DNA of 64,000 nt, from NCBI GenBank assembly GCA_964634875.1, contig CAZWKA010000002.1:15590-79589 (forward strand), given 5' to 3'. Shown piece after piece: positions 12,840-61,345 of the stretch; positions within the stretch are counted from its first letter, which is position 1; every line of letters starts with the position of its first letter. Origin of the DNA: an uncultured Gammaproteobacteria bacterium (lineage in GTDB: Bacteria; Patescibacteriota; Patescibacteriia; Magasanikbacterales; GWA2-37-8). Both the position numbers and the translations under genes were made by a program. Below the pieces are notes generated by a model, which searched no databases, was not told the origin of the DNA, and worked only from the letters and a program-made list of their open reading frames with translations.

Positions 12840-12868
12840 TTGACAGGTCGGCACAAAAGCTTTAATTT
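12840..12868 (+). promoter_or_regulatory. Sigma70-type promoter (TTGACA-17-TAATTT) of high-GC cassette 1
   Basis: TTGACA at 12840-12845, a 17-nt spacer, and TAATTT at 12863-12868. An AGGAG Shine-Dalgarno sits 7 nt before the ATG at 12894. Confidence 0.5.
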
Positions 12869-12893
12869 ATTAGAAAACAACCAGGAGAATCTG

Positions 12894-13103
12894 ATGACAC
12901 TTGAGCAAATGTTTACCGAGTGTGTTCACATGGAGGACGGTGAACAGAAGAAATTCAGATTCCTTCAGCCAGTGGCGCGCAAGAAGGTGGAGCGCCTTGC
13001 CGAGCGAGTCGCTGCAGAAAAGCTCCGTCAAGGCGGGTACCTAACCGTCACTATCGACGGCCTGCACGCTATCTGGACTGCAACATGCACGACTGTCATC
13101 TAG
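12894..13103 (+). CDS. Hypothetical small protein (69 aa), high-GC orphan cassette 1
   Basis: ATG with a strong Shine-Dalgarno. Visibly GC-rich codons. Followed by the perfect-hairpin terminator at 13188-13216. No recognisable domain. Confidence 0.45.
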   Translation: MTLEQMFTECVHMEDGEQKKFRFLQPVARKKVERLAERVAAEKLRQGGYLTVTIDGLHAIWTATCTTVI

Positions 13104-13187
13104 CGCAACAACCCTGTCGTTCACTTGCCTTTTGAGCGTCGTAACCGATGCTTAAAAGGGAGGATCGAACGCCAGGGTTGTTTTTAT

Positions 13188-13216
13188 AAAAAACCCTCTG
13201 ATCAGAGGGTTTTTTA
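13188..13216. terminator. Bidirectional intrinsic terminator (aaaaccctctgatcagagggtttttt)
   Basis: A perfect 10-bp stem flanked by an A-run and a T-run. It sits between convergent genes (cassette 1 on plus, rpsI on minus). Confidence 0.75.
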
Positions 13217-13234
13217 GGAAGATTGTAAGTTTTT

Positions 13235-13642
13235 TTAACGCTTGCTCCACTGTGGTGCACGGCGAGCTTTTTTAAGACCTGGTTTCTTGCGTTCCTTGAT
13301 GCGGGCGTCTCGGGTAAGAAGACCGAGGGCTTTAAGTACCTTTTTGTTTTCCTCATTCCAAAGGACCAGGGCGCGAGCAATACCGAGCTGCACAGCCGTG
13401 GCTTGTCCTTTTTTGCCGCCACCAGCTACTTTGGCTGATACATCAAGATCCTTGTCTTTAGCCAGAGCTTTGAGAGGAGCAAAAATTGTCTCCTGCCATT
13501 CAAAGTAAGGAAAATATTTTTCAAGCGGCTGTCCATTGACCGTAATAGTTCCTTTGCCTTTTTCCAAACGAACCCGGGCAGAAGCAGATTTGCGGCGGCC
13601 GACAGCGCGCATTTGGTCGGTTTTAGTAGTAAGCTTTGTCAT
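13235..13642 (-). CDS. rpsI: 30S ribosomal protein S9
   Basis: C-terminus '...RRAPQWSKR' and the conserved S9 core 'GGGKKGQATAVQLGIARAL'. Confidence 0.93.
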   Translation of the reverse strand: MTKLTTKTDQMRAVGRRKSASARVRLEKGKGTITVNGQPLEKYFPYFEWQETIFAPLKALAKDKDLDVSAKVAGGGKKGQATAVQLGIARALVLWNEENKKVLKALGLLTRDARIKERKKPGLKKARRAPQWSKR

Positions 13643-13654
13643 ACAAAGTTCGGT

Positions 13655-14011
13655 TTATTTAAAAGACAAACGCAAGAGACGTGCTTCGCGCAGTTTGTTT
13701 TTCGGAAGCATTTTTACCACCGCGTGACGGACGACGTCTTCAGGCTTTTCAGCTAAGACTTTCCTGACTGGGGTGCGCTTAAGACCACCTGGATGCATGG
13801 TGTGGTGCAAGAATTCTTTCTGCTCAAGCTTCTTACCAGTAAAGAGAACTTTGCTGGCATTGAGGATAACAACTTTATCGCCCATGTCGCGGTGTGGTAC
13901 ATAGCTCGCCTTGTGTTTGCCCATCAAAAGCGTGGCGATCTTGGTAGCAAGCCGTCCAGGAGCCTGGTTAGTCGCATCAATTTCGTGTTTTTTGCGTTTA
14001 ATACTGGCCAT
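13655..14011 (-). CDS. rplM: 50S ribosomal protein L13
   Basis: 'KKHEIDATNQAPGRLATKIATLLMGKHK' is the L13 N-terminal signature. It is upstream of rpsI as in the canonical operon. Confidence 0.92.
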   Translation of the reverse strand: MASIKRKKHEIDATNQAPGRLATKIATLLMGKHKASYVPHRDMGDKVVILNASKVLFTGKKLEQKEFLHHTMHPGGLKRTPVRKVLAEKPEDVVRHAVVKMLPKNKLREARLLRLSFK

Positions 14012-14036
14012 AACAGTTATTTAGACAAATTATAAG

Positions 14037-14387
14037 TTAGACGAATTCAATCAGTACTTCCTCTGCTCCGTCGCCAACGCGATTTCTAAGGCTCGTGGTG
14101 CGAGTGTAACCGCCTTTGCGGTCGAGGTAACGGGGTCCTAATTGTTCCATCAATTTTTTAACTGCATTTTCAGTGTAAAGCTCTTTAATAAGAGCGCGGC
14201 GAGCAGTCAGTGTATTTGCTTTGGATTTGGTAATAAGTTTTTCAACATACGACCGGACAGCACGTGCTTTGGCCTTGGTGGTCTTGATTTTTTCGTAGAT
14301 AATCAGGCTTTCAGCCAAGTTAGCTAAGAGCGACCGGCGGGCAGCCGAATTGCGGTCAAGCGTAATTTTAGTTTTTTGATGTCTCAT
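14037..14387 (-). CDS. rplQ: 50S ribosomal protein L17
   Basis: 'MRHQKTKITLDRNSAARRSLLANLA...' is the L17 N-terminal signature. It follows rpoA. Confidence 0.92.
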   Translation of the reverse strand: MRHQKTKITLDRNSAARRSLLANLAESLIIYEKIKTTKAKARAVRSYVEKLITKSKANTLTARRALIKELYTENAVKKLMEQLGPRYLDRKGGYTRTTSLRNRVGDGAEEVLIEFV

Positions 14388-14439
14388 ACTGATAGTGCTT
14401 GATAGCTGGTAGCGCAGGAGCGCCGTAGCAATTGGTTAA

Positions 14440-15270
14440 TTATGATTTTTTCTTAGTCTTCTTTGCCTTTGGTTTCTTTTCTGATTCTTCTTCACCGCCC
14501 ATTTCAGTCGTTTCCTCCGGCAGCGCTTCACCCGCTTCTTCACCCACAGCTTCCACAGCAGCTGGCGCAAAGTCTGGCGTAGCACTAACTTCATCTAAAA
14601 TAATATTGAAATGGCTGATCAAGATTTGAGTACTCTGAAGCAATGCATCTTTCGGAGCAATCGTTCCATTCGTTTCGATGTTAATCGTCAAGCGTTCAAA
14701 GTTTGTAATGTCACCGACACGCGTGTATTCAACTTTATAACCAACATCCTTTACAGGAGTGTAGACCGAATCCATAACAATCGTGCCAAGGTCATAATTT
14801 TGCTTATCTTTTTCTTCGACTGGTTTATAACCACGTCCCTTACCGACCGTAACGTCGATGTCAAGCGTTTTAGCGCTGGTCAGGTGGGCAATGACTAAAT
14901 CCGGATTAACAATTTCAACGTTCGAGTTAGCGACGAAATCAGCAGCAGTAACAACACCAGGACCCTTTTTAACAAGATTCAAAACAACGGTCTCGTCGGT
15001 AAAAATCTTAACCGCCAACTGTTTGAGGTTAAGCATCATTTCCATGGCGTCTTCTTTAACACCCTCAACAGTACTAAATTCGTGAGAAACGCCTTTTACT
15101 TTAAAATGCTCAACGGCTGAGCCAGGGAGTGACGACAACAAAACACGACGGAGCGCATTTCCGAGCGTTGTTCCATACCCGTGATAACACGGTGTAATAA
15201 CGACCGAACCAGAATTCGGCGTCTGCCCCTCTTGGAATTCCACTTTGGAAGGAAGAAGAAAATTCTCCAT
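14440..15270 (-). CDS. rpoA: DNA-directed RNA polymerase alpha subunit (short form; N-terminal domain plus acidic/lysine tail, no recognisable alpha-CTD)
   Basis: RpoA N-terminal-domain motifs are present ('GYGTTLGNALRRVLLSSLPGSAV'). It is 276 aa, compared with ~330 aa typically. The C-terminus is 'EEAGEALPEETTEMGGEEESEKKPKAKKTKKKS'. Confidence 0.88.
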   Translation of the reverse strand: MENFLLPSKVEFQEGQTPNSGSVVITPCYHGYGTTLGNALRRVLLSSLPGSAVEHFKVKGVSHEFSTVEGVKEDAMEMMLNLKQLAVKIFTDETVVLNLVKKGPGVVTAADFVANSNVEIVNPDLVIAHLTSAKTLDIDVTVGKGRGYKPVEEKDKQNYDLGTIVMDSVYTPVKDVGYKVEYTRVGDITNFERLTINIETNGTIAPKDALLQSTQILISHFNIILDEVSATPDFAPAAVEAVGEEAGEALPEETTEMGGEEESEKKPKAKKTKKKS

Positions 15271-15281
15271 AGTGCTTAAAA

Positions 15282-15890
15282 TTAACGAGAATAAAACTCA
15301 ATGATTGCTTTGGCGTCAAAATTTGGATTTTCGGCAGTTGGGCTATTGAGCACTTTGCCGGCCAAATTTTTCGCTTCGATAGTAAGCCAGCTCGGGGCTT
15401 CAACCTTAGCAAGAGTTTCGCTCAAGTTTTCATATAACTTACTTTTTTTCTTAGTTTCTTTAATTCCAACTACGTCGCCTACTTTTACACGGTAAGAAGG
15501 AATATCAACATTTTTACCATTTACAGTAGTGTGTCCGTGGCCAACAATCTGGCGAGCGCTGCGGCGGGATTTTGCCAAGCCCAAGCGGTAGACTACATTA
15601 TCAAGACGGGATTCAAGGTAATTGAGCAAAATCTTGCTGGTATCACCGGTTTTTTTGGAAGCCTCTTCAACGTAGTTTGAAAATTGGCGCTCCAAAAGTC
15701 CGTAAATCTGTTTTACTTTTTGTTTTTCACGCAATTGTTTACCATAAGCAGAGAGCTTTGGTTTTTTCTTGTTTGGGCCATGCTGCCCGGCTGGGTAGCT
15801 GCGGCGAGTAATAGGGCATTTCGGGGAATCACAGAGTTTCTCTCCGAACTTGCGGCATACTTTATGTTTTGGTCTGAGATCGCGAGCCAT
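15282..15890 (-). CDS. rpsD: 30S ribosomal protein S4
   Basis: 'MARDLRPKHKVCRKFGEKLC...' is the S4 zinc-ribbon N-terminus, and an S4 RNA-binding domain follows. Confidence 0.93.
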   Translation of the reverse strand: MARDLRPKHKVCRKFGEKLCDSPKCPITRRSYPAGQHGPNKKKPKLSAYGKQLREKQKVKQIYGLLERQFSNYVEEASKKTGDTSKILLNYLESRLDNVVYRLGLAKSRRSARQIVGHGHTTVNGKNVDIPSYRVKVGDVVGIKETKKKSKLYENLSETLAKVEAPSWLTIEAKNLAGKVLNSPTAENPNFDAKAIIEFYSR

Positions 15891-19923: not shown

Positions 19924-19958
19924 GGCATGTTGCCTTTTGCGCTAAGGAGAACAGAACG

Positions 19959-20369
19959 ATGTTGAAACTCTACATCTCTGCACGACAAATACTTGAAGCC
20001 CTCAAGGAGGGCACGTTCGATTTGGAACAGTCACTCATCATCCTGTGCTCCCCACCCGACAATCCTATCGCTGAACGCGTGGAGAGCTACGTGCAATACG
20101 CTGCTCACCAGAAAACGGACTTCCACAGCATCCTTCGGAGTGCCGAGGAACGTGGCCGACTGGTCGTCTGCCGCGACAGCATCTGGGAAAGTGGTGGGGT
20201 CAACTCGGGACCGTACATGTGGTTCCGGGATGAGCTTGAATGCAGAAACGTGGAGCTGATGTTCAGCTACTTCTTGCAGACCACGGTTACAATATCAAGA
20301 CGCGCTTCGGTCGACTTTCACATCCTCCTCGATCCCCACGCGAACCAGATCGCAATCGTCCAAGACTAA
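19959..20369 (+). CDS. Hypothetical protein (136 aa), high-GC orphan cassette 2
   Basis: Strong Shine-Dalgarno and GC-rich codon usage. A terminator-like hairpin follows at 20384-20446. No known domain. Confidence 0.45.
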   Translation: MLKLYISARQILEALKEGTFDLEQSLIILCSPPDNPIAERVESYVQYAAHQKTDFHSILRSAEERGRLVVCRDSIWESGGVNSGPYMWFRDELECRNVELMFSYFLQTTVTISRRASVDFHILLDPHANQIAIVQD

Positions 20370-20383: not shown

Positions 20384-20446
20384 AAAACACCCGTCACTAG
20401 CCCCACTGTTTGTTAGCAGACAGTAGAGCCAGCGGGTGTTTTTTGT
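20384..20446 (+). terminator. Intrinsic terminator-like structure (aaaacacccg...cgggtgtttttt)
   Basis: Outer 10-bp stem with a structured loop, followed by a T6 run. Confidence 0.45.
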
Positions 20447-25407: not shown

Positions 25408-25436
25408 TTGACAAAACGCATGCGAGGTGTAGCTTA
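25408..25436 (+). promoter_or_regulatory. Sigma70-type promoter (TTGACA-16/17-TAGCTT) of cassette 3
   Basis: TTGACAAAAC at 25408. A GGGGTGA Shine-Dalgarno-like element sits before the ATG at 25467. Confidence 0.4.
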
Positions 25437-25466
25437 AGACCAGTCAAATTTTGTTTGGGGTGACCA

Positions 25467-25766
25467 ATGTCTATCGTTGCCGCATTGATGCAAGCGAAAC
25501 TGACCTTGGGCTGTGGAGATCCACAACGTCCGACTCCACATGCTCGCTGCAGCAACCTGAAAGTTGTTGATCGGGCACGGCTCATTACCGAGCACGATTC
25601 TGACGAGGTCAGAGAAGCAAAACTGCAGCTCATCGAACAAGCCCGCGAACCAGACGCGCTCTTCCTGCTCTGCAAGTGCGGGCACTACCGCGCGATGGGG
25701 ACCGTAGTCGACATGCTCATTGGTCTTCGTCAGAAAAACTTCCCAGCCGGGGAACCCAGTGACTAA
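25467..25766 (+). CDS. Hypothetical protein (99 aa), high-GC orphan cassette 3
   Basis: GC-rich codons. Followed by a perfect 11-bp hairpin terminator at 25791-25826. Confidence 0.4.
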   Translation: MSIVAALMQAKLTLGCGDPQRPTPHARCSNLKVVDRARLITEHDSDEVREAKLQLIEQAREPDALFLLCKCGHYRAMGTVVDMLIGLRQKNFPAGEPSD

Positions 25767-25790
25767 AGGCCTACCCCGCCAAACCCGCAA

Positions 25791-25826
25791 GGGAGCGCTG
25801 CATCGCAGCGCTCCCTATTCATTTTT
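25791..25826 (+). terminator. Intrinsic terminator (gggagcgctgcatcgcagcgctccc followed by a T-run)
   Basis: A perfect 11-bp stem with a 3-nt loop, then 'tattcattttt'. Confidence 0.7.
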
Positions 25827-26832: not shown

Positions 26833-26976
26833 CCTAACGTCTTAGGCCAGCGCTGTCAATTGTGATTCTTACCGAAGCCACGAATGGCACTACTGCTTGG
26901 CACCGACCTTGTTTGTTACATTTTTAGATTAGTGATAGTATACCGGTGTTTTAAAGGAGCTTGTATCTGTTTTTTT

Positions 26977-29373
26977 ATGAACAAAAATTCTTTACCAACT
27001 ATCCTAGTCATTCTTGGCGCAACCGGCGACCTGATGACTAAAAAAATCGTCCCTGCGCTCTTTCATTTACACCTCGAAAAAAACCTGCCCACTCTCTTCC
27101 AGGTTATTGGTTACTCGCACCGCCCGCTGAACGACGCCACTTTTCGCGACCATCTGAAAGTAATTTTAGAAAAAGATGCGCGATACAGCACAACTGACGG
27201 CAAAGAAGTGCAGAAATTTTTGGACCGTTTTGTTTTTCATCAAGGGGATTTTGAAAAAGAGGCTGACTACCTATCGCTGGCTGAAAAACTTGGCAACACT
27301 GACGGCGAATGGAAAGTGTGCTCTAATAAACTTTTTTACTTGGCAGTTCCCCCGGATTTTTTGAAAACAATTGTTGGCCATTTGACCACCTCCGAACTTA
27401 CCAAGCCCTGCTCACCAGAAGAAGGCTGGACGCGAGTGTTGGTCGAAAAGCCTTTTGGACGAGACCTGGCGACTGCCGAAAAGCTTGATGAACTTTTAGG
27501 CAAGCTCTTTAAAGAAGAGCAGATTTATCGCATTGACCACTATCTGGCCAAAGAAATGCTCCAAAATATTTTGACGTTCCGGTTCTCCAATAATTTATTT
27601 GAAAAAATTTGGAATAATCAGTTCATCGAACAGATTGAAATCAAACTGTGGGAAACATTGGGCGTTGAGCTGCGCGGGCCATTTTATGACGGTGTCGGTG
27701 CACTTCGGGATATGGGACAAAACCATATCATGCAAATGCTGGCATTGACCACCATGGAGAGACCGCGTAATTATAGTGCAGCAGCGATCCGTGATCAGCG
27801 GGTGGCTATTTTAAAAACGCTTCCAGAGTTAACTAAAAAGGAAGTAGCGACCAACACATTGCGCGCTCAATACGACGGATACCGAGCGATCAAAGGCGTT
27901 TCCCCTACTTCAACAACTGAAACCTATTTTAAAGTAAAAACAGAGCTGACAGCTCCGCGCTGGCGTGGCGTACCTATAATCATGGAAAGTGGCAAACGGA
28001 TGGGCGAAAAAAAGAAAGAAATTATCGTTACCTTTAAACACGCGTCTCCCTGCCTCTGCCCACCTGGTGAACATAATAAAAATCAAATCATTTTTCGACT
28101 TGATCCTGTAGAAGGCATCACTATTAAATTTTGGTCAAAAGTTCCGGGACTTGATTTTAAAATTGAGGGACGTACCATTGATTTCATGTTACGCACGGAA
28201 GCCGCCACCTCTCAATACGTTGAGGAATACAAAAAATTATTACTCGACAGCATAACCGGTGACCAAACTTTGTTTAATGATACACGTGAAGTGCGTGAAA
28301 TGTGGCGTTTTATCGACTCAATAAGTCATGTTTGGGCTAAACAAGTACCGAAACTGGATACGTATACCCCGGACACTAACTCCGTCTCACACCTTCTTTC
28401 TTTCGAACGAGCTATAGAGGACAGGATGCCTAAAAAAATCGGCCTTATTGGGCTTGGAAAAATGGGGGCGAACCTTGCCCGTCGTTTGACGGCTCAGGGT
28501 TGGGAAGTGACCGCTTTTAACCGTACCGCGGCAGTGACCCAAGAGATTGAAAAGGAGGGCATCAAAGGCGTGTATTCCCTAACAGAGCTCGTCCAGAGCC
28601 AAAAGGGCCCGCGAATCATTTGGCTTATGGTGCCAGCGGGAAAACCCGTTGATGACATGCTCTTTGGTAAAGACGGAATTGTTCAGCTGCTTAAAAAGGG
28701 CGACATTATTATTGACGGGGGTAATTCATTTTATGGCGATGCTGCCAAGCGCGCTGCAAAACTTAAAAAATTTGGCATTCATTTTATGGATTGTGGCACA
28801 AGTGGAGGGCCGGGTGGAGCGCTCGCGGGGCCTTGCCTTATGATTGGCGGTGAACGGAAAATATTTGAAAAGATCGAAAATTTTTTTGCGGACTTGGCCG
28901 CACCGGAAAGTTATCAATTTTTTGACGGCTCCGGAGCAGGACATTTTGTAAAAATGGTCCACAATGGAATTGAGTACGGGATGATGCAAGCTCTTGCTGA
29001 AGGATTTGCGGTTATGAAAAAATCTCCGTTTAAATTGAACTTAGAAAAAGTTACTGATATTTACAATCACGGGAGCGTCATCGAATCTCGTCTGGTAGGC
29101 TGGCTCGCTTCTGGCTTTGCTGCGTACGGCCAGGATTTGAAAGGCATTTCCGGATCCGTAAACTACACCGGCGAAGGAGAGTGGACTGTACAGGCAGCCA
29201 AAAAATTAAAAATCCCAGCACCGGTTATCGAAGGCTCGTTCAAATTCCGCGTTGCTTCACAAAAAAAACCTTCGTTTACCGGACAACTTTTGTCCACCCT
29301 GCGCAACCAGTTCGGCGGACATGATGCGGTACATACCAAACCTGGCAAGCCTAGCTCTAAAAAGAAAAAATAA
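26977..29373 (+). CDS. zwf: Fusion protein: glucose-6-phosphate 1-dehydrogenase (N-terminal, ~500 aa) + NAD(P)-binding 6-phosphogluconate dehydrogenase (C-terminal, short/YqeC-type, ~300 aa)
   Basis: G6PD motifs 'ILGATGDLMTKK' and 'RIDHYLAKE'. After '...SFERAIEDR' there is 'MPKKIGLIGLGKMGANLARRL' plus 6PGDH-like core motifs. A single uninterrupted ORF. The ORF-track start at 26884 is an alternative-start N-terminal extension; the ATG at 26977 is preferred. Confidence 0.8.
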   Translation: MNKNSLPTILVILGATGDLMTKKIVPALFHLHLEKNLPTLFQVIGYSHRPLNDATFRDHLKVILEKDARYSTTDGKEVQKFLDRFVFHQGDFEKEADYLSLAEKLGNTDGEWKVCSNKLFYLAVPPDFLKTIVGHLTTSELTKPCSPEEGWTRVLVEKPFGRDLATAEKLDELLGKLFKEEQIYRIDHYLAKEMLQNILTFRFSNNLFEKIWNNQFIEQIEIKLWETLGVELRGPFYDGVGALRDMGQNHIMQMLALTTMERPRNYSAAAIRDQRVAILKTLPELTKKEVATNTLRAQYDGYRAIKGVSPTSTTETYFKVKTELTAPRWRGVPIIMESGKRMGEKKKEIIVTFKHASPCLCPPGEHNKNQIIFRLDPVEGITIKFWSKVPGLDFKIEGRTIDFMLRTEAATSQYVEEYKKLLLDSITGDQTLFNDTREVREMWRFIDSISHVWAKQVPKLDTYTPDTNSVSHLLSFERAIEDRMPKKIGLIGLGKMGANLARRLTAQGWEVTAFNRTAAVTQEIEKEGIKGVYSLTELVQSQKGPRIIWLMVPAGKPVDDMLFGKDGIVQLLKKGDIIIDGGNSFYGDAAKRAAKLKKFGIHFMDCGTSGGPGGALAGPCLMIGGERKIFEKIENFFADLAAPESYQFFDGSGAGHFVKMVHNGIEYGMMQALAEGFAVMKKSPFKLNLEKVTDIYNHGSVIESRLVGWLASGFAAYGQDLKGISGSVNYTGEGEWTVQAAKKLKIPAPVIEGSFKFRVASQKKPSFTGQLLSTLRNQFGGHDAVHTKPGKPSSKKKK

Positions 29374-31276: not shown

Positions 31277-31390
31277 ATGAACAGTGCCCTTAAGGCTCGC
31301 ATGAACCAAGCTAAAAAGAATACCAAAATCGGCAAAAAACTGAAGAAGAAAACCAAACACATTGTTAAGAAAAAAATCATCAAGACCTAA
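31277..31390 (+). CDS. Possible very small Lys-rich protein (37 aa): MNSALKARMNQAKKNTKIGKKLKKKTKHIVKKKIIKT
   Basis: An ATG-initiated ORF in a 150-nt gap, followed by a hairpin and T9 run at ~31400-31442. No clear Shine-Dalgarno. Composition resembles a ribosomal or nucleic-acid-binding peptide. Confidence 0.25.
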   Translation: MNSALKARMNQAKKNTKIGKKLKKKTKHIVKKKIIKT

Positions 31391-31554: not shown

Positions 31555-32223
31555 ATGAGCAAGCGCGCATTCAAAGCTTGTCAATTACTGGTGCTGACCC
31601 TTGTAGGGCTCAGCGCTTACACCGCGATTAACTTTTCCAGCCCATCCCCAAAGAACGTGGATTACGACGAAAAGTACCTGGAAGCCTGGAACAGGTACAG
31701 AACAGCGTGTGAAAAGAACGAACCTCGACTCTACCCAATCCCCTTCGAAACCCTTGTTGAGGACAGGATCGCCCAAGAACCCGTCAGAGCCAAAAAAATC
31801 AAGCTTCTGAAAAAAACTGAAGCCAGTCCCACATCCTCTGGCTTGTCCAACCACGGAACCCTATCCTGTTACAACAAAAACTACTCTGAGCTAAACAGGG
31901 AATGCCGAGAAGTTCCTTCTTCAGCCCTTCCGCGCATGAATTTTTGTCCCTATTACTGGTTTCGACCCGTTCTTCAAACCAGAAACAGGGCGGTGGTTAA
32001 GGCTAGGACGGTAAGACAGAACTCCGAAAGAGTTAACTTGCCGGAAAACATTCGTTGGACCGCAAGCTTTGCCTATAGCTATACAGGCGCATGCCAAGCT
32101 CAGCACATGAACTGGGCAGTGCAGCTGCTAAAGCAAGGGCACCGTCCTGCTGATCTCGACCAGAGATTTGACACCCCCTCCTACTGCTGCACGGTTCCAC
32201 AGACCGTATCTAGAACCCGCTGA
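31555..32223 (+). CDS. Secreted Cys-rich hypothetical protein (222 aa), high-GC cassette 4
   Basis: N-terminal signal peptide 'KACQLLVLTLVGLSAYTA'. About 12 Cys residues. No known domain. A terminator hairpin follows at ~32260-32300. Confidence 0.5.
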   Translation: MSKRAFKACQLLVLTLVGLSAYTAINFSSPSPKNVDYDEKYLEAWNRYRTACEKNEPRLYPIPFETLVEDRIAQEPVRAKKIKLLKKTEASPTSSGLSNHGTLSCYNKNYSELNRECREVPSSALPRMNFCPYYWFRPVLQTRNRAVVKARTVRQNSERVNLPENIRWTASFAYSYTGACQAQHMNWAVQLLKQGHRPADLDQRFDTPSYCCTVPQTVSRTR

Positions 32224-32300
32224 TCGATCGGCCACGTCGATCGACCAGCACCCTAACGAACAGCTTTTTAGTTAAAAGGCTGTTCTTTTTTGTTTTACCA

Positions 32301-32329: not shown

Positions 32330-32350
32330 TCCGGTAAAGGAGGGGTCCTG

Positions 32351-33016
32351 ATGAAAAATCTGCTCACAAACAGTGCCCTGCGAGCCGTCGGCTTGCTCGT
32401 CTTGGCTACCACCTGTCTTGGAGGCACGGGCTGCACCGATTTCATATCCAGGCTTGCAGGCGGCTCAAAGGTGGTGGACAAGGGCGAAGGCGTTGAACGA
32501 CCACATGTTGGCTGGTTAGGAGCGCGCGGAGTGACCTCGGCAGACAACGTGAGCGAAGAGGCGCACGAGGCTCTGGTTGTCGCCTTAAAGAAGCTCTGTG
32601 ATGAGGCAGGAAACCAAGAGGCCTGCCGGCAGCACCTGCGCTGCAAATTCGCAAACGACTGTGCAACCGGAAATGAGCCGGTCCTCATCCTGAGCGATTT
32701 GTCTGGTGAGGGTGGTGAGGGCCAACCCCCGATGGGAGTTGGGCAACCAACCTACTGCGATCCGGAGCATGCCCACTATTTTGCGCTACTCATCAAGCCT
32801 GAATCAGAAGCGCCAAACTCATCGGGCTTCTGGCATATTCGCGGCTACCTCCGGTGCATCATCTGTGGACATGAGATCAAACTCGGACGCTACCAGCTCA
32901 ATGATGCGCTGAGTGCGGACGAGGCCCGCTCCCAAGCCGCCTCGCGAATCAGTGACATCATCGAGTGGTTCAAGCGAGAAAGCTTGAGCTGGCCACGAAA
33001 CCCGACGATCAACTGA
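32351..33016 (+). CDS. Putative lipoprotein, Cys-rich hypothetical (221 aa), high-GC cassette 5
   Basis: Signal peptide with a lipobox-like 'LGGTGC'. Many Cys pairs ('EACRQHLRCKFANDC', 'RCIICGHE'). GC-rich codons. Confidence 0.5.
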   Translation: MKNLLTNSALRAVGLLVLATTCLGGTGCTDFISRLAGGSKVVDKGEGVERPHVGWLGARGVTSADNVSEEAHEALVVALKKLCDEAGNQEACRQHLRCKFANDCATGNEPVLILSDLSGEGGEGQPPMGVGQPTYCDPEHAHYFALLIKPESEAPNSSGFWHIRGYLRCIICGHEIKLGRYQLNDALSADEARSQAASRISDIIEWFKRESLSWPRNPTIN

Positions 33017-33043: not shown

Positions 33044-33100
33044 CAGTTTCTGGCCCCTTACCAGTGTATTGTATCGGACATACTGGTAAGGCCAGAAACA
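33044..33100. repeat. Long near-perfect inverted repeat / extended hairpin (~22-bp stem)
   Basis: 'gtttctggcc(cc)ttaccagt...actggtaaggccagaaac'. It lies between convergent genes, immediately upstream of the terminator hairpin at 33101-33140. Confidence 0.6.
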
Positions 33101-33140
33101 AAAAACAACCCCTAACATGAGCTGGGGGTTGTTTTGTTTT
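33101..33140. terminator. Bidirectional intrinsic terminator (aacaacccctaacatgagctgggggttgtt followed by a T-run)
   Basis: A 10/11-bp stem with an A-run upstream and 'ttttgtttt' downstream. Confidence 0.6.
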
Positions 33141-36517: not shown

Positions 36518-36590
36518 CGGGCTATAGCGCAGTTGGTAGCGCGCATGCATGGGGTGCATGAGGCCGTGGGTTCAAGTCCCACTAGCCCGA
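36518..36590 (+). tRNA. tRNA-Pro (anticodon GGG)
   Basis: A manual fold gives a 7-bp acceptor stem (CGGGCTA/TAGCCCG), a GCGC D-stem, and a CATGC/GCATG anticodon stem. The loop is A-T-GGG-G-T with G37. The T-arm is GTGGG-TTCAAGT-CCCAC and the discriminator is A. CCA is not encoded. Confidence 0.8.
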
Positions 36591-36627
36591 CACATTTACG
36601 GAAAATTACTCCTCAATTATTGAGCTG

Positions 36628-37642: not shown

Positions 37643-37789
37643 ATTTGTTCTTTGTAAGAAGATTTCCAGCTTTAATTTCAGTATATTTAGCAAAATAGAT
37701 TGAGTTGAAGGCTGAAAATTCAGCACTTCCTCTTTGCCGGGGTGGCAAGGAGCGAGCCCTTTACCAAAAGGGCAGAAAATAGGACAGCA

Positions 37790-38251
37790 ATGAGTACTCT
37801 GCGCGCACTAGCGCACCTCGAAGAGCAACTTGGTCCAGCTCGGTGGCACGAACTGATCGACTCGGCGAACACTGGAAAGGTCAAGGCGCTCTGCGACGAA
37901 TTGCTTATCCCGACAACCATGGTGGTCGGGGGTCGCACCTACGACATCCTCAGCGTTGAAGGCAATATCGGTAGCGGACACGAGCTGGTCTGCCTAGCGC
38001 AGGAGTTGGATGCCCACTTGGGACGCGAGGAGCGCATGCACCTGCTCGATCACCAACAAGAAATCCCGAGTCTCCTTGGAAAAATCAAAATCATTTTCAC
38101 GGATGACACGAGTGCGGATGATGCCCACGGCAGCATCACTTCGATCGAGTGGGATAAAGGGTGTAGGCAGTGGACGTGCTTTTGGTGCAGGCTTGACAGC
38201 ACCATCATCTACCGGGGACGCAACATACGCGTACTGCGCCGTCGCTCGTAA
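37790..38251 (+). CDS. Hypothetical protein (153 aa), high-GC orphan cassette 6. A GTG at 37742 is an alternative start.
   Basis: GC-rich codon usage. A terminator follows at 38324-38370. No domain recognised. Confidence 0.4.
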   Translation: MSTLRALAHLEEQLGPARWHELIDSANTGKVKALCDELLIPTTMVVGGRTYDILSVEGNIGSGHELVCLAQELDAHLGREERMHLLDHQQEIPSLLGKIKIIFTDDTSADDAHGSITSIEWDKGCRQWTCFWCRLDSTIIYRGRNIRVLRRRS

Positions 38252-38323
38252 AAAGCCTTGAACTGAGACCTAAAACTTCTCCACCGACCAGGGCGCGCAG
38301 AACATTTCGCGCCGCTGGTCACT

Positions 38324-38370
38324 AAAAACAACAGTCTTAAACTTAAAACTGTTGTTTTAATTTTTTTTAA
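38324..38370 (+). terminator. Intrinsic terminator (aaaaacaacagt...actgttgtttt followed by T8)
   Basis: An 11-bp stem with a 12-nt loop, then a long T-run. Confidence 0.6.
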
Positions 38371-38550
38371 AAAAAAGGCTCTAACATAGTCCACCCAAGC
38401 CGACGGAAATATAAAACAGCATAATCTGCTGTTTTATATATTTTTTACTAAAACCTTGCAATTTTATTAGGTATAGGAGTAGGGTACAAGAAAGCTAGGT
38501 ACCCCATTCAGCTCAAGCTGAAGATGAGCTTTCAACCCAAGGAGGTCGTG

Positions 38551-39240
38551 ATGCGTGACGAAGGTGAACGAATTGGTCAAATCTCTGAGTGGCGCAATGG
38601 AAACGGTTCAGAAAGACAAGAGCCAATCTGCATGCTCGATCTGGCTTTTATCCTACGCCAACTGTCTGCCGCTTCGGGGGTGAGTACGACATATAGGCTG
38701 GCAACGGAAGGGATGCTGCTTGGTTTACAGGAGATGTCTGAACAACACCCTGTCAGCTGCACGTTCCTCGCCGCGCTCTACCGTAACTTGTATGAGGGCG
38801 GCCAAGAAGAGCGCGGTTTTGAAGCTGAACTGCGGGATTACTCTCTCGTCGCCGCGAAAGTTCTGGAACAGCTTTCCAAGAACCTTACCATCACCCCGCC
38901 CAACTCTGAAAATATCGAACACTCAGTGGTAAAGCAGAACATCTTAAGACAGCTTGTCGGGATCAAGCTGATGACCGCTCAACACTTGGAAGTCCTGCTT
39001 CATGACCTGTCCGAGATGAGACCCGAGATCACTGCCCTTCTGCCAAAGAGGGTGGGAAGAAGTGTGTGGGGAAGTGACTGGCAGGAAGGGAAACACCTTA
39101 TTATCCCTGGAGAAGGTGTAGGAGAAGAGGATACCGAAATACTTCCGAGTAGCGCCCTGAGCTTGCTGGTGCGTCTCAGCCTAGGATTGGTTCTTGCAGA
39201 CAAGCTCCAGAAGGCGCTGCAACCGACCCTCACCCACTAG
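38551..39240 (+). CDS. Hypothetical protein (229 aa), high-GC orphan cassette 7
   Basis: An AAGGAGG Shine-Dalgarno sits 5 nt before the ATG. GC-rich. A perfect-hairpin terminator follows at 39272-39305. Confidence 0.45.
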   Translation: MRDEGERIGQISEWRNGNGSERQEPICMLDLAFILRQLSAASGVSTTYRLATEGMLLGLQEMSEQHPVSCTFLAALYRNLYEGGQEERGFEAELRDYSLVAAKVLEQLSKNLTITPPNSENIEHSVVKQNILRQLVGIKLMTAQHLEVLLHDLSEMRPEITALLPKRVGRSVWGSDWQEGKHLIIPGEGVGEEDTEILPSSALSLLVRLSLGLVLADKLQKALQPTLTH

Positions 39241-39271: not shown

Positions 39272-39305
39272 CCCGGCGCTAACTAGCGCCGGGAATTTCA
39301 TTTTT
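39272..39305 (+). terminator. Intrinsic terminator (cccggcgctaactagcgccggg followed by a T-run)
   Basis: A perfect 9-bp GC stem, then 'aatttcattttt'. Confidence 0.7.
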
Positions 39306-39498
39306 ACACTTGACTTTACTCTTCTTCAGTCATAGTATCCCTAGCAACCGAGACTTGCCCCAACAAAATTGCTATCTTACGACTGAATGAATCGTGGCAT
39401 AAAAACCAACCAGACCCGCTGTTTGATTAAGACCGGGATACTACCCGAACTATCAACCCCCGAATCTGGGCCAACTAGCACACCACGCGGAGGTCAGC

Positions 39499-39861
39499 AT
39501 GCTAGACCACAAAGATACCCGGTTCACTTTCAGCCTCCAAAACCGAATCTACGAAGCAGTGGGCTTTCTTAATCCAGGAGAAGCTAATTGTCTTGGAACC
39601 GAGATGCTGCAACGCACTGCCGGCGAAAACGGCGGGGCGATTGGGAAAGAAGACGAGGAGTTCATTATACACTGGATTAACGAGCTACCTGTCGAACTCC
39701 AGCCTTATTGGCTCGTGACCCAACGCCTATACGAAGGCAATATGCAGCGAAATGTTTCTTGTCTTGCGTGGTGCACAGAGACGGGTCGGTGGTACCGCTT
39801 TTGGGACTGGCTTGGATATAGCTGGTTTCCCAGGTGTCTTGTACTCCGACGCATCACCTGA
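39499..39861 (+). CDS. Hypothetical Trp-rich protein (120 aa), high-GC orphan cassette 8
   Basis: A GGAGG Shine-Dalgarno before the ATG. The C-terminus is 'RWYRFWDWLGYSWFPRC'. A bidirectional terminator hairpin follows at 39923-39948. Confidence 0.4.
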   Translation: MLDHKDTRFTFSLQNRIYEAVGFLNPGEANCLGTEMLQRTAGENGGAIGKEDEEFIIHWINELPVELQPYWLVTQRLYEGNMQRNVSCLAWCTETGRWYRFWDWLGYSWFPRCLVLRRIT

Positions 39862-39922
39862 AATCATACCGAACTAAGCTGTAGACTTTTCAAAAAGGAA
39901 AACAGCTTGGTTCACAAAATAA

Positions 39923-39950
39923 AACACTCTCGATTTTATCGAGGGTGTTT
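39923..39950. terminator. Bidirectional terminator hairpin (acactctcgattttatcgagggtgt)
   Basis: An 11-bp stem with one G-U pair. A T-run follows on the minus-strand reading, so it fits as the terminator of the nucleotidyltransferase gene. Confidence 0.5.
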
Positions 39951-39979
39951 TACATAGATAGAACCGACCACAACACAAA

Positions 39980-57351: not shown

Positions 57352-57360
57352 AGTCTAAAA

Positions 57361-58164: not shown

Positions 58165-59299
58165 ACTTTTTTGGCTGCAAACGAGGATTAAAAAGTTCTT
58201 TTTCGAGGATACGGACAATTTGCTTACCTGCTTTTCCTTGTCCGTACGGATGGACGGCAGCGCGCGCTTTCTTTTGGAAAGCCGGAGTCAAGGCAAGCGT
58301 CAGCGCCTTTTTAATTTCCTTTTCGTCATAACCAACATGCATAACATTTTTACCGCATTCTCTCCCCTCCTGGCGACGGCCGATGTTAATTACCGGGCGA
58401 TGAAAAAAAGTCGACTCAATAATTCCGGAACTAGAGTTACCTACCAGTACATCAGCGTACTTTAAAAGGCTCAAATATACTTTTCGATGGACGTTAGGGA
58501 AAACATGCCAATCATTTTGTTTTTCCCTGGCCTTGAACTCACCAATAATAATCGCACTACCTGTATCTGTATTCGGATAAATAGCAATTTTTTCGCCAAT
58601 AAAACTTTTGAGGGCAGCAAGCGTTGGTTTAATTTGTTTATCGACAGAAACGGCATCAAGCGGAGCAGAATGCTGCAATAGCAAAAACCATTTTTGCTGA
58701 GGATCAAGTCGAAGTTGCTCGGCAAGTTCTTGGCGGCTAAAATATTCCATGCTTGCCAAGTCGTCGATTCCAGGCGCCCCCACCGTATGAATACGCCAGG
58801 CTTCTTCACCGATTTTTTTGATGTTCTGACTGCTCCGTTTAGAAACAGCAAAATGCAGATGGGCAAATTTGGTTATTGCACTCCGAATAGCATCGTCGAC
58901 TACTCCGGCAGTAATGTCGCCCCCGTGAATATGGGCGAGAGGAATTCCTAAATGTCCAGCTACAATGGCCGCAGCAAAAGGTTCGTCCCGATCGCCCAGG
59001 ACAAGCATTGCATCTGGTTTATTTTTGAGACAATAGGCTTCAATACCTTCAATTTCCTTAGCGAGGGCGGTGCTCATGGTATCGTTAACCGCAATCGGTA
59101 CGACGGCATCAATAGCTCGCTTATCCTGGCGGATATCGTTAATGGTTTCCCCGTACTTCTTTAAAGTATGCATACCCGTTACGAGCAAGCGCATTTCTAA
59201 AACCAAACTTTTTGAGAGTTCAACCATGCTCGATTTGAGCAGTCCATATTCAGCACGAGTACCTGTTATGACTAAAACTACTTTTTTATTTTTTTTCAT
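58154..59299 (-). CDS. neuC: UDP-N-acetylglucosamine 2-epimerase (hydrolysing), NeuC/LegG-like
   Basis: 'VVLVITGTRAEYGLL', 'DAMLVLGDRDEPFAAAIVAGHLGIPLAHIHGGD', 'VGAPGIDDL'. Epimerase_2 family. Confidence 0.8.
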   Translation of the reverse strand: MKKNKKVVLVITGTRAEYGLLKSSMVELSKSLVLEMRLLVTGMHTLKKYGETINDIRQDKRAIDAVVPIAVNDTMSTALAKEIEGIEAYCLKNKPDAMLVLGDRDEPFAAAIVAGHLGIPLAHIHGGDITAGVVDDAIRSAITKFAHLHFAVSKRSSQNIKKIGEEAWRIHTVGAPGIDDLASMEYFSRQELAEQLRLDPQQKWFLLLQHSAPLDAVSVDKQIKPTLAALKSFIGEKIAIYPNTDTGSAIIIGEFKAREKQNDWHVFPNVHRKVYLSLLKYADVLVGNSSSGIIESTFFHRPVINIGRRQEGRECGKNVMHVGYDEKEIKKALTLALTPAFQKKARAAVHPYGQGKAGKQIVRILEKELFNPRLQPKKYVA

Positions 59300-60363
59300 A
59301 CCAAATCTTCTGTTTTAATAAGGGTGTCCGCTGGGATATCGTGCACTGCTTTTTTACCAACCACACTGTCAATTTCTGTTGGCGGGATGCCGTAACCCGG
59401 GCGCTTCATGATTAAATCTTCCAACTTAATTTCACTGCCAGCGGCAATACTATTTTTGCTAATAATGCTCTTACGGGCAATGGTTTTAATGGAAATTTCT
59501 TCAGGAGTACACTGCTTTTCAAAACTGCCAAGCATAACTTCCGCGTCGCGAATCGCTGCCACCATCGCTTTAAGTTCAGCCGGGTCAAGTGAAGCTTTGT
59601 GGTCTGGGCCTTCCATATTTTTATCGAGCGTATAATGTTTTTCAATGACCGTCGAACCCAGTGCGGTAGCGACGATATCCGCAACGATGCCGGTACTTCC
59701 GTTGTCGGAATAACCTACTGTTACATCATACGGCTCCAGTTCTTTACGGAGCGTGGTAATAACATTTAAATTAAGACTGCCAAAACTTGGTGGATAGTTG
59801 GACGTGCTATGCAAAACGATAATATCGTGGTTACCCATTGCCTTAATTTCTTTTACGGCACAGATGGTTTCTGGCAGATCAGCCATACCAGTCGAAACGA
59901 TCATCGGCTTGCCTTTTTTGGCAATGTGCCTCAGGTACGGAATGTTGTTAATTTCACCGGACGGAATTTTGTAAGCGGCAATATTGAGTGTTTCTAAAAA
60001 GTCAGCATTAGCTTCAGCAAAGGGAGTGGAGAGAAAAATAATGCCTTTTTGTTTACAGTAATCAATCAAAATTTGATGGTACTCACTTTTGAGTTCCAAA
60101 CGCTTGAGCATGTCGAACTGCGATTCAGTCTTACCAATATTGCGGGTTTGGTATTCGGCCTGTTCCGCAGTACCGGTAACAAGGAGCTCAGCAGTAAACG
60201 TTTGGAATTTTACTGCGTCAGCACCGGCTTCAACAGCTACATCAACTAATTTTTTAGCCAGTTCAAGGTCGCCGTTATTATTAACACCAGCTTCAGCAAT
60301 AATGAAAACCGGCTCACCATGGCCAATTGTTTTTCCTCCAATTACAATCTTTTTTGAGGTCAT
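59296..60363 (-). CDS. neuB: N-acetylneuraminate/legionaminate/pseudaminate synthase (NeuB family) with C-terminal SAF domain
   Basis: 'IIAEAGVNNNGDLELAKKLVDVAVEAGADAVKFQT' and a C-terminal SAF/antifreeze-like domain. ATG at 60363 is taken as the start. Confidence 0.85.
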   Translation of the reverse strand: MTSKKIVIGGKTIGHGEPVFIIAEAGVNNNGDLELAKKLVDVAVEAGADAVKFQTFTAELLVTGTAEQAEYQTRNIGKTESQFDMLKRLELKSEYHQILIDYCKQKGIIFLSTPFAEANADFLETLNIAAYKIPSGEINNIPYLRHIAKKGKPMIVSTGMADLPETICAVKEIKAMGNHDIIVLHSTSNYPPSFGSLNLNVITTLRKELEPYDVTVGYSDNGSTGIVADIVATALGSTVIEKHYTLDKNMEGPDHKASLDPAELKAMVAAIRDAEVMLGSFEKQCTPEEISIKTIARKSIISKNSIAAGSEIKLEDLIMKRPGYGIPPTEIDSVVGKKAVHDIPADTLIKTEDLV

Positions 60364-60510
60364 ATAACTTACATAGATAAAAACAACTGGCTCAAAAAGT
60401 ATAGCATTTTGCTTTAAAATAGGCAATAATCTCCTTTATAAACAGAAGAGGCCGCATCACTCGGAACCGAAGTTCCGTAGGTGCGGCCTGGGGAAGTGAT
60501 ATTTTTTCTT

Positions 60511-61230
60511 CTACGGAAGGGGGAACGGGAAGGTCTCGATGCCGTCGCCGAGGCCGTCCTCGGCCCATTCCTTCTTCACGCGCTCCATGTACGAGCGGAG
60601 ATAGGCAAAGCGCTCGCGAGCCATCTGCTTGGCCCGTGACAGGCGCAGGCCAAACGTTCCGCTCTCCCACTCGCAGTTGTGGTCGATGTCGCGCAGGACG
60701 GAACCAGGCTCGCGGAAGCTGACACCAGGCTCGTGCAGCAGGTAAGGGCTGACCGCGGGCTTATCATGGTAGAACTGTCCAGCCCGCATTACGACTTCTG
60801 CTCCAACCCCAACGTATCGGTCAGCGTCACGGAGCGCCTGGAGCGTGATCGGATCGCCCTCGAAGTTCCCCTGATCGTGCGCGAGCACATCGGCGATGAC
60901 GAGGGGCCAATCCGCCCGGTTGATCCGCGGTTCGGCCGAGAGCCAGTCGGTGATGAGCGCCGCGACTTTGTCCCGGTGAACGTCCTTGCGGTGACCAGCG
61001 TGCATCGTATACTGGAGGACGCGGTCGGCATTGTGACAGAAGCCGCCAGCCATGGCCAGGTTCAGGATGCGTTCGTCCACGTCCCCAACGAGCAGTCGCC
61101 CCGCCACATCTGCGACGCGGGCAGCGTGCAGAAAATCGTGAGCACCACCGGTGATGCCCACGCTGTAGTGGCCAACGCGTACCGCGCGGGCCAGGTCAGG
61201 CAAACGGTCCCAAGCTCTTTGTTCCGACAT
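60511..61230 (-). CDS. HD-domain phosphohydrolase-like protein, high-GC orphan cassette 9
   Basis: 'GAHDFLHAARVADVAGRL' (H...HD...H.RVA pattern), with later His/Asp residues. Strongly GC-rich codons. It has its own promoter and a GGAG Shine-Dalgarno. Confidence 0.5.
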   Translation of the reverse strand: MSEQRAWDRLPDLARAVRVGHYSVGITGGAHDFLHAARVADVAGRLLVGDVDERILNLAMAGGFCHNADRVLQYTMHAGHRKDVHRDKVAALITDWLSAEPRINRADWPLVIADVLAHDQGNFEGDPITLQALRDADRYVGVGAEVVMRAGQFYHDKPAVSPYLLHEPGVSFREPGSVLRDIDHNCEWESGTFGLRLSRAKQMARERFAYLRSYMERVKKEWAEDGLGDGIETFPFPLP

Positions 61231-61316
61231 ACTCTCTTCTCCTTTGGAGAAATGGTCGACGGATGTCCTCCTCAGCGACTATGCACCCACTGCACAAGCC
61301 GCAGAAAGAACATAGT

Positions 61317-61345
61317 AAAATACTTGAAAAACTCACTTTTGTCAA
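61317..61345 (-). promoter_or_regulatory. Sigma70-type promoter (TTGACA-17-TATTTT) for the HD-domain cassette
   Basis: Minus strand 'cTTGACAaaagtgagtttttcaagTATTTT'. The 'cttgacaaaag' start is identical to the promoter at 31465. Confidence 0.45.

Follow-up and report, generated by a model that had tools for sequence, protein, structure and literature searches.

This report concerns a 64,000-nt (64-kb) stretch of contig CAZWKA010000002.1 (hereafter the window) and nine small GC-rich cassettes within it, which we number C1 to C9 in window order. We consider it somewhat probable, at roughly 55%, that these cassettes are moron-like, laterally acquired transcription units that stem from one gene pool using Shine-Dalgarno (SD) sequences. 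This explanation rests on three layers of evidence, namely the codon and dinucleotide composition of the cassettes, the presence of an SD, and the lack of the T context at position -1 that marks native start sites; a variable locus between rmlA and cca adds to these. The SD split between the cassettes and the native genes is a contrast that goes beyond what the initial annotation of the window had observed. The DNA examined comprised the 64 kb and a few related loci, and the comparisons drew on ~68-75 called open reading frames (ORFs) for composition, 58 native genes for pairing with the anti-SD and 59 native genes for strand. Genomes of Patescibacteria are small and contain many unknown genes, and both their gain of accessory functions and the way they start translation are poorly understood. 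When base composition and initiation signals are combined, the flexible genes of such genomes can be picked out simply and from the sequence alone.

Setting and organization of the nine cassettes

The window has a GC content of 44.5% and encodes ribosomal proteins, a short alanyl-tRNA synthetase, Dus, transketolase, the CCA-adding enzyme and PilT, along with a long cluster of sugar-nucleotide and glycosyltransferase genes. With the CCA-adding enzyme as query, the nearest genomes were metagenome-assembled genomes (MAGs) at 60-72% identity, and the next best matches were a Candidatus Magasanikbacteria MAG (58%) and a 'Patescibacteria group' MAG (57%). Since these relatives are Magasanikbacteria-like Patescibacteria, the source organism was assigned to the Patescibacteria (candidate phyla radiation, CPR). 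The cassettes account for ~13% of the window genes and are dispersed over 48 kb. They are listed below with their coding sequences (CDS), GC content, GC content at third codon positions (GC3), anti-SD pairing energy in kcal/mol and, for the 3′ hairpins, z-scores against shuffled sequences.

C1, 12840..13216, plus strand: promoter TTGACA (12840), 17-nt spacer, TAATTT, which fits the strict promoter pattern; SD AGGAG. CDS 12894-13103, plus strand, 69 aa, GC 0.538, GC3 0.629, anti-SD -7.4. 3′ end with a 76-nt hairpin at 13107-13182, then a bidirectional terminator at 13187-13216 common to rpsI (-64 kcal/mol, z -10.1).
C2, 19895..20445, plus strand: promoter TTGACAA (19895), 17-nt spacer, TATATT; SD AAGGAG at 19944-19949. 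CDS 19959-20369, plus strand, 136 aa, GC 0.538, GC3 0.679, anti-SD -9.1. 3′ end with a long hairpin and T-run at 20384-20445 (z -3.1).
C3, 25408..25826, plus strand: promoter TTGACAAAA (25408), 16-nt spacer, TAGCTT; weak SD-like GGGGTGA. CDS 25467-25766, plus strand, 99 aa, GC 0.557, GC3 0.590, anti-SD -6.0. 3′ end with a 12-bp GC hairpin at 25790-25816 and a T-run (z -5.5).
C4, 31465..32295, plus strand: promoter TTGACAAAA (31465), 17-nt spacer, TATAGT; SD AAGGAAGG. CDS 31555-32223, plus strand, 222 aa, GC 0.505, GC3 0.565, anti-SD -7.6. 3′ end with hairpins at 32224-32244 and 32258-32285, then a T-run.
C5, 32293..33145, plus strand: promoter TTGACAA (32293) with an imperfect -10 box; SD AAGGAGG at 32337-32343. 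CDS 32351-33016, plus strand, 221 aa, GC 0.577, GC3 0.644, anti-SD -12.1. 3′ end with hairpins at 33046-33099 and 33102-33135, then a T-run (z -5.8).
C6, 37613..38372, plus strand: promoter TTGACAAAA (37613), 17-nt spacer, TATAAG; leader of ~140 nt; weak SD AGGA. CDS 37790-38251, plus strand, 153 aa, GC 0.565, GC3 0.675, anti-SD -4.6. 3′ end with hairpins at 38286-38320 and 38325-38358, then a T-run (z -5.1).
C7, 38539..39305, plus strand: no convincing promoter; SD AAGGAGG at 38539-38545. CDS 38551-39240, plus strand, 229 aa, predicted helical, GC 0.528, GC3 0.574, anti-SD -12.1. 3′ end with a hairpin at 39272-39293 and a T-run (z -4.3).
C8, 39310..39952, plus strand: promoter-like TTGACT (39310), 17-nt spacer, TAGTAT; C-rich leader of ~155 nt; SD GGAGG at 39489-39493. 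CDS 39499-39861, plus strand, 120 aa, GC 0.512, GC3 0.545, anti-SD -10.2. 3′ end with hairpins at 39871-39913 and 39920-39952, the second bidirectional and common to rmlA (z -10.0).
C9, 60449..61345, minus strand: promoter TTGACAAAA (61345-61337), 17-nt spacer, TATTTT; leader of ~80 nt; SD AAGGAG at 61244-61239. CDS 61230-60511, minus strand, 239 aa, YpgQ-like HD-superfamily phosphohydrolase, GC 0.639, GC3 0.758. 3′ end with a compound hairpin at 60489-60449 and a weak T tail; neuB follows directly downstream.

All nine cassettes lie between housekeeping or sugar-cluster transcription units, as the initial annotation had described, and the genes that flank them include rpsI, alaS, dus, tkt, cca, rmlA and neuB. 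Eight of the nine are on the plus strand, compared with 12 of 59 native genes (p 1.3e-4); these eight run antisense to the prevailing gene direction, the leading strand by GC skew. The junctions between cassettes and native DNA were recovered in independent Logan assemblies of SRR12762304 for C2 (contig L092), C4-C5 (L093) and C7-C8 (L001). Because these independent contigs give the same junctions, the cassettes are not assembly chimeras. In a public protein collection, seven of the nine cassette proteins were singleton clusters (from an NCBI contig of 182.7 kb and the Logan assemblies of SRR12762304), and the exact protein of C1 was absent from that collection. Contig L001 stops ~100 nt upstream of C7, beside a 31-nt AT-rich palindrome (38409-38439) located between C6 and C7; this end could be a hairpin-caused assembly break or could reflect strain heterogeneity.

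Base composition and coding signal

The nine CDS range from 0.505 to 0.639 in GC and from 0.545 to 0.758 in GC3, whereas the medians of the called ORFs are 0.44 and 0.42, respectively; they make up the upper tail of the GC3 distribution in the window. The only other ORFs above 0.5 GC, those of L27 and of a zinc-ribbon gene, show an ordinary GC3. The high-GC stretch covers the CDS and ~60 nt downstream, while the 100-200 nt upstream are host-like. The description of the cassettes as GC-rich and compositionally distinct was thereby substantiated by GC3, and codon choice and dinucleotide signature (below) point the same way.

GC2 was the lowest of the three codon positions, below GC1 and GC3, in all nine cassettes. 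The stop-free length exceeded that of composition-matched shuffles in eight of them (p 0.000-0.042), C1 with its 69 aa not being significant on its own (p 0.31). At C3, a longer antisense ORF (25434-25790) is present and the strand call therefore rests on the promoter, the terminator and the annotation. Across all amino acids the codon usage was shifted from T3 to C3 and from A3 to G3, as exemplified by ATC (0.77 versus 0.27 in native genes), and NNC was strongly favoured over NNT in frame. Translational selection for C-ending codons was considered and rejected: CGT (0.10 versus 0.32 in native genes), GGT and GCT all drop, and the ribosomal-protein genes have an ordinary GC3. We therefore regard the codon shift as compositional.

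Dinucleotide relative abundances, normalised for base composition, were compared by the distance delta*. Two disjoint halves of the cassette set differed by a delta* of 70, which is within the within-genome null of 61+-19, whereas each half was 155-186 away from the native genes, with a null maximum of 104. The distances between the cassettes and CDS of similar GC from other organisms were 133-245, bar one 0.9-kb sample. Since CDS of similar GC elsewhere are not close, the likeness of the two halves is not a trivial effect of GC3. This shared signature suggests that the nine have a single compositional source or went through a common process. The idea of one signature for the cassettes of all genomes was rejected, the nine being at a delta* of 142 from the GC-rich genes of L083.

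Shine-Dalgarno sequences and start context

The median anti-SD pairing was -8.7 kcal/mol for the cassettes and -0.1 kcal/mol for the 58 native genes (Mann-Whitney p 1.8e-6). Eight of the nine cassettes reached -6 kcal/mol or better, C5 and C7 being strongest (-12.1). An SD of the AGGAG, GGAGG or AAGGAGG type is located 5-10 nt before the start in eight of nine, the form at C3 being weak. A strong SD at all nine, as initially proposed, thus held for most cassettes, with only GGGGTGA (-6.0) at C3 and only AGGA (-4.6) at C6 as the weakest forms. The native leaders (30 nt before the start) were AT-rich, G-poor and without an SD. Random 20-mers from the window paired at -2.2 kcal/mol, which is better than the native leaders, and we therefore conclude that SD-like sequence is avoided in these leaders. 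The native starts are moreover characterized by T at -1 (81%) and G or C at -2, a context that is missing from the cassettes. At positions -12 to -4 of native starts, G makes up only 7-14% (e.g. 13642-, 14011-, 15890-, 16362-, 29383+). Judged from these leaders, the native start context looks like a lineage-specific, Kozak-like initiation context. The start regions of the cassettes were also more structured, with a median folding energy of -6.0 versus -3.4 kcal/mol for native genes (p 0.004).

According to a published survey, about half of the Parcubacteria have a 16S rRNA without the anti-SD motif (PMC9297842). If the organism studied here has no anti-SD, the cassette SDs would be molecular fossils by which imports could be recognised and the kind of donor narrowed down; with an anti-SD present, the cassettes would be candidates for a separate translational regime. 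Among the genes of native composition, only neuB (59296-60426, minus strand; AAGGAG, -8.7 kcal/mol) has a strong SD; it has a TTG start and lies directly downstream of the C9 hairpin. The start codon may have been assigned wrongly; alternatively, neuB could have come in along with C9.

Promoters, leaders and terminators

An exact TTGACA was found 54-180 nt ahead of C1, C2, C3, C4, C5, C6 and C9. For the strict pattern TTGACA-N16-18-TAnnnT, the window has 11 sites where 1.7 would be expected; five of the 11 front cassettes (C1, C2, C3, C4 and C9). Hence, the near-consensus promoters claimed for seven cassettes were borne out for the -35 element at all seven but for the complete pattern at only five, as the -10 boxes of C5 and C6 are imperfect. 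For C7 and C8, which had been described as lacking a convincing promoter, this was true of C7, while C8 is preceded by a site that matches 9 of 12 consensus positions. The same TTGACA-17-TAnnnT pattern also fronts the native rpmA and dus genes, the ytxH-cca-pilT operon and the zinc-ribbon gene, so that the promoter is not specific to the cassettes. One of the refuting conditions named in the initial annotation thus applies to its promoter claim. Two long leaders, at 39339-39498 ahead of C8 (C-rich, G-poor) and at 37650-37789 ahead of C6, gave no Rfam match and could be regulatory candidates.

The hairpins in the 3′ flanks of all nine cassettes were far more stable than those of shuffled sequences (z -3.1 to -10.1), and the T-run is weak for C9 only. 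This agrees with the view that each cassette is monocistronic and ends in a strong terminator. Tandem double hairpins are present in five of the nine, and the second hairpin is often a bidirectional terminator shared with a convergent native gene. The near-perfect hairpin of C1 (13107-13182) follows immediately after the ORF. Because this 76-nt hairpin is large relative to the 69-aa ORF, the C1 transcript may have a role at the RNA level. An Rfam scan of the window yielded tRNA-Pro only.

Related genomes and the interval between rmlA and cca

Synteny was followed at one locus, the rmlA-cca interval. The closest relative, L002, retains the glycosyltransferases, rmlA, tRNA-Pro(GGG) and cca at this locus but lacks C6-C8. 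Other genes are present instead, one of which is GC3-rich (0.72) with AAGAGGAGG, a TTGACT-17-TAATTT promoter and a hairpin; its ORF matches the phage protein family phrog_35201 (function unknown; E 3.5e-14). The synteny comparison called for in the initial annotation hence showed, at this locus, that the cassettes are not conserved. C6-C8 lie near tRNA-Pro(GGG) (36518-36591), and no other cassette is near a tRNA. In the window, the tRNA-Pro(GGG) interval holds C6-C8 and two small ORFs, and in L002 (7357-7431, 8622-8696, 9448-9905) it holds a 398-aa ORF, a second tRNA-Pro(CGG), the PHROG-related GC-rich gene and fragments of pilT, which is apparently a pseudogene there. The stretch around tRNA-Pro(GGG), with rmlA on one side and cca on the other, is a hot spot of variation.

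The split recurs in L090 (GCA_964523595.1), where four of 18 genes are GC3-rich (0.67-0.75), SD-led (-6.4 to -12.1 kcal/mol) and equipped with promoters and terminators of the cassette design. The 14 native genes of L090 have no SD, bar one marginal pairing of -7.1 kcal/mol, and 12 carry the -1 T. Taking the window, L002 and L090 together, anti-SD pairing of -6 kcal/mol or better was found for 13 of 14 GC3-rich genes versus six of 88 native genes. No GC3-rich SD-led genes were found in the 7-13 kb examined of L003-L005. Two genes for TrwB/TraG-like type IV coupling proteins are located at 16820-20155 of L090, a few kb downstream of its GC-rich cassettes, and hint at a conjugative apparatus nearby.

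Proteins encoded by the cassettes

The protein of C9 has 215 homologues (full HMMER scan, E <= 0.001), the best at 42% identity. C9 itself falls below the Pfam HD threshold, which several of the homologues pass. In an alignment of 50 sequences H31, H35, H118 and D137 were invariant and H66 and D135 nearly so. The profile of C9 matched PDB entries 2pq7 (E 3.6e-10) and 3dto, both 'predicted HD superfamily hydrolases', and 5dqv, the Bacillus subtilis YpgQ protein. The AlphaFold2 (AF2) model had a predicted local distance difference test (pLDDT) score of 94.9 and was matched by Foldseek to 3djb and to YpgQ 5dqv with a probability of 1.0; identity to the solved structures is 16-20%. C9 is accordingly identified, from alignment and model, as a YpgQ-like metal-dependent phosphohydrolase of the HD superfamily.

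C9 is located within the sugar cluster, next to and upstream of neuB, and its homologues in L082, L085/L086, L088 and L089 adjoin genes for FdtA-type isomerases, epimerases, DegT aminotransferases, methyltransferases or acetyltransferases. Those in L083/L090 and L087 adjoin an HTH_8 gene and secDF. With the YpgQ-like phosphohydrolases C9 shares the all-helical HD fold and the H...HD...H...D metal ligands, but those enzymes belong to a context of nucleotide housekeeping, whereas C9 belongs to one of sugar-nucleotide biosynthesis. The gene neighbourhood thus points to a sugar-nucleotide pathway rather than to nucleotide pyrophosphohydrolysis, and C9 would serve the adjacent cluster. The closest homologues are encoded on contigs of 38-50% GC or on Patescibacteria-like contigs. 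Their GC content is host-like in L082, L085, L088 and L089, elevated in L090 (0.625 versus ~0.45) and modestly elevated in L087. Since homologues elsewhere match the GC content of their hosts, the family is not intrinsically GC-rich and the 0.64 GC of C9 reflects its own history.

Searches of Pfam, NCBIfam, PHROGs, PADLOC and PDB sequences gave nothing above threshold for C1-C8, in line with the initial statement that no recognisable family is present apart from the HD protein. For C5, a sub-threshold match to DUF7919 was the only family match, and the only PHROG hit among the nine, that of C1, was not significant (E 0.038). A match of C8 in IMG/VR (L091) lay outside any ORF and was discarded as spurious. 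Concatenated cassette queries against 5.8 billion protein clusters retrieved no close homologue, but they also missed the relatives of C9 at <=42% identity and a normal-GC control ORF. Because real homologues of C9 were missed, this null excludes close relatives only, and the orphan status of C1-C8, as judged from these searches, is provisional.

The nine had also been regarded as one family. BLASTP and Smith-Waterman comparisons with shuffles revealed no significant protein similarity among them, the best being C2-C4 (z 4.7 over 17 residues). Nor were there DNA matches among the nine cassettes and their flanks, the 3′ ends sharing only chance matches of 11-17 nt. The family view was therefore abandoned. 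By eye, C6 (37790-38251) and C8 (39499-39861) resemble each other in a C-terminal W-x6-W-x2-FW ... VLRR pattern, but with a marginal alignment z of only 2.9 their paralogy was not upheld, and a distant kinship would be no more than a possibility. Inspection by eye further showed an N-terminal hydrophobic signal or anchor in C4 and a lipoprotein-like signal in C5, both with many Cys. By these features C4 and C5, alone among the nine, look secreted, and they may act at the cell surface. A single-sequence AF2 model of C7 was unusable (pLDDT 37).

Origin of the cassettes

According to the explanation that we favour, each unit has a promoter of the sigma-70 type, a leader in which a canonical SD precedes a GC3-rich ORF (69-239 codons), and a hairpin terminator of its own, and these units would have been added laterally to a CPR chromosome whose own genes begin translation without an SD. 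Insertion would have occurred at the borders between native transcription units, mostly in antisense orientation, such that native operons would be neither interrupted nor read into. The donor would be one foreign compositional pool of ~50-64% GC that uses SDs, be it another bacterium, a mobile element or a phage. From one such pool would follow the shared codon bias and dinucleotide signature, the SD and the missing native -1 T context, and on this basis we infer a lateral origin from a single source. The cassettes are presumably expressed. Lateral acquisition of orphan genes is in itself ordinary. Less ordinary are the clean split by several signals in an SD-avoiding genome, the uniform insulation, the single signature and the recurrence in other SD-less Patescibacteria.

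The closest parallel in design comes from phages, where morons were reportedly recognised by Juhala/Hendrix in 2000 as independent transcription units between phage genes. Such units are added between the genes of the phage (Cumby, Davidson and Maxwell 2012, PMC3594210). Like the cassettes, a moron is a single gene with its own sigma-70 promoter and factor-independent terminator, its composition is unlike that of the flanks, it is absent from the same site in a relative (here C6-C8 versus L002), and the accessory products are mostly of unknown function. A moron, however, sits among phage or prophage genes, whereas the cassettes are flanked by chromosomal housekeeping and sugar-cluster operons, and only the analogous cassette of L002 matches a PHROG, no phage relatives having been found for the nine and no IMG/VR relatives for the six scanned. 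Integron cassettes are likewise small, single-gene, mostly orphan accessory units of atypical composition. They are nevertheless promoterless, carry attC and are arrayed by intI, attI and Pc, whereas the cassettes of the window have their own promoters, are dispersed and lack a common 3′ repeat, their hairpins being ordinary terminators with T-runs and no integrase being seen. Genomic islets and ORFans resemble the cassettes in being lineage-specific genes of atypical composition and signature, and tRNA-adjacent hot spots resemble C6-C8 by tRNA-Pro(GGG), where the interval varies in L002 too. Islets are usually AT-rich, however, whereas the cassettes are GC-richer than the host; moreover, the cassettes have no integrase, direct repeats or multi-gene island, and each unit is insulated singly. 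As for the SD, autoregulation of an SD-led rpsU in SD-poor Bacteroidota has reportedly been described (Jha 2021, McNutt 2023). There, as in the window, the SD is absent or avoided genome-wide and a small set of genes has a strong SD, which could give them a distinct translational fate. In Bacteroidota, however, the SD-led gene is native, conserved and normal in composition and encodes a ribosomal protein, whereas the SD-led genes of the window are compositionally foreign orphans.

Several observations weigh against lateral acquisition from one pool. No donor was found for any cassette. In searches with tblastn, none of the nine matched phage genomes or plasmids, and scans of IMG/VR contigs for C2, C4, C5, C6, C7 and C8 gave no real match; the homology searches that came back empty for C1-C8 carry little weight. 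Genes gained by lateral transfer are AT-rich more frequently than they are GC-rich, and nine acquisitions with one signature need a special, repeated source. Neither integrase nor transposase flanks any cassette, there is no integrase among the annotated window genes, and the flanks of the nine showed no target-site duplication and no direct or terminal inverted repeat beyond shuffles. The -35 element of the cassettes is often TTGACAA(AA), the same as at the native rpmA and zinc-ribbon promoters, and the cassette promoters therefore look host-adapted, not imported. Lastly, a pair of HTH_8 and HD genes occupies the same site upstream of secDF in L090 and L087, whose SecD proteins are 62% identical, and in both genomes the pair has kept an elevated GC3. 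Recent transfer followed by simple amelioration would not predict this, which accords better with a state that is maintained, or with replacement that recurs at a hot spot, than with one recent transfer.

These same observations lend some weight to the main rival explanation, which we nonetheless hold to be doubtful: the monocistronic genes with high GC3 and an SD would be fast-evolving genes that have long resided in the lineage and whose codon composition and SD are actively maintained. Structured GC-rich mRNAs might need SD-dependent initiation by a subset or state of ribosomes, or GC-biased gene conversion might act at recombination hot spots; with either cause, the cassettes would make up a regulon or a translational regime of their own. 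The SD/GC3 split in three assemblies (window, L002, L090), the native type of the promoters and the absence of mobility signatures fit such an origin, as does the high GC3 of the HTH_8-HD pair in both L090 and L087, where the neighbours are only 62-66% identical. C9 lies in a sugar-nucleotide cluster like its homologues in L082, L085/L086 and L089, and this shared setting suggests that it is functionally integrated; the SD could be compensatory, as the start regions of the cassettes are more structured than those of native genes. However, no cassette orthologue was present in the loci of relatives examined, the syntenic interval of L002 has different genes, and L003-L005 have no such genes in the parts covered. 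The dinucleotide signature differs from that of the host beyond GC3, and the GC-rich sets of different genomes have no signature in common. We also know of no mechanism that would maintain a high GC3 gene by gene, with such sharp boundaries, in bacteria.

In a related and, in our judgement, unlikely alternative, translation in SD-less Patescibacteria would be two-tiered: they would keep an insulated GC3-rich, SD-led class that is initiated by a route separate from that of bulk genes, for instance by a ribosome state exposing the anti-SD or under particular conditions only. This idea stays open because the split is seen in three assemblies and because the HTH_8-HD pair is syntenic, and GC3-rich still, in two long-diverged genomes. 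If it were true, the SD/GC split would separate accessory from core genes and would not be a mere relic of transfer.

The proposal of the initial annotation that the cassettes were taken up from a high-GC actinobacterium, as bacterial host of an episymbiont, turned out to be very improbable. The cassettes are GC-richer than the recipient and use SDs as Actinobacteria do, and taking up genes repeatedly from the same partner could leave a single signature. Yet the group with known actinobacterial hosts is the Saccharibacteria, whereas the nearest relatives here are Magasanikbacteria-like, and no observation ties the organism to Saccharibacteria or to a host among the Actinobacteria. The GC3 of 0.55-0.76 is well below typical actinobacterial values, consensus -35 boxes and U-tract terminators are not typical actinobacterial signals, and delta* to loci of Streptomyces, Cellulosimicrobium and Bifidobacterium was 133-245. 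Despite heavy actinobacterial sampling, the low-sensitivity search of 5.8 billion clusters gave no close homologue, and the relatives of C9 are on the contigs of 38-50% GC or Patescibacteria-like contigs mentioned above. That the cassettes are assembly chimeras, or structured RNAs with chance ORFs, is barely credible: high GC does lengthen chance ORFs, C1 is within the shuffles, long antisense ORFs exist at C3 and C9 and the 3′ flanks are highly structured, but the junctions recur in independent contigs, codon periodicity with NNC over NNT in frame is seen in all nine, eight ORFs exceed shuffles, the SDs stand at the correct distance from the ATG, C9 belongs to a bona fide protein family and its fold is predicted with confidence, and Rfam reports tRNA-Pro alone, so that the structured-RNA version was rejected on codon periodicity and Rfam.

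Other genes of the window

Directly upstream of transketolase, an 829-aa ORF is present at 26884-29373 (plus strand), which appears, from the Pfam list of its counterpart in L093, to encode a fusion of glucose-6-phosphate dehydrogenase and 6-phosphogluconate dehydrogenase. After transketolase, a 37-aa, very Lys-rich ORF (MNSALKARMNQAKKNTKIGKKLKKKTKHIVKKKIIKT; 31277-31390, plus strand) with its own terminator was called, also in the Logan contig L093. Its product may be a small basic protein associated with the ribosome.

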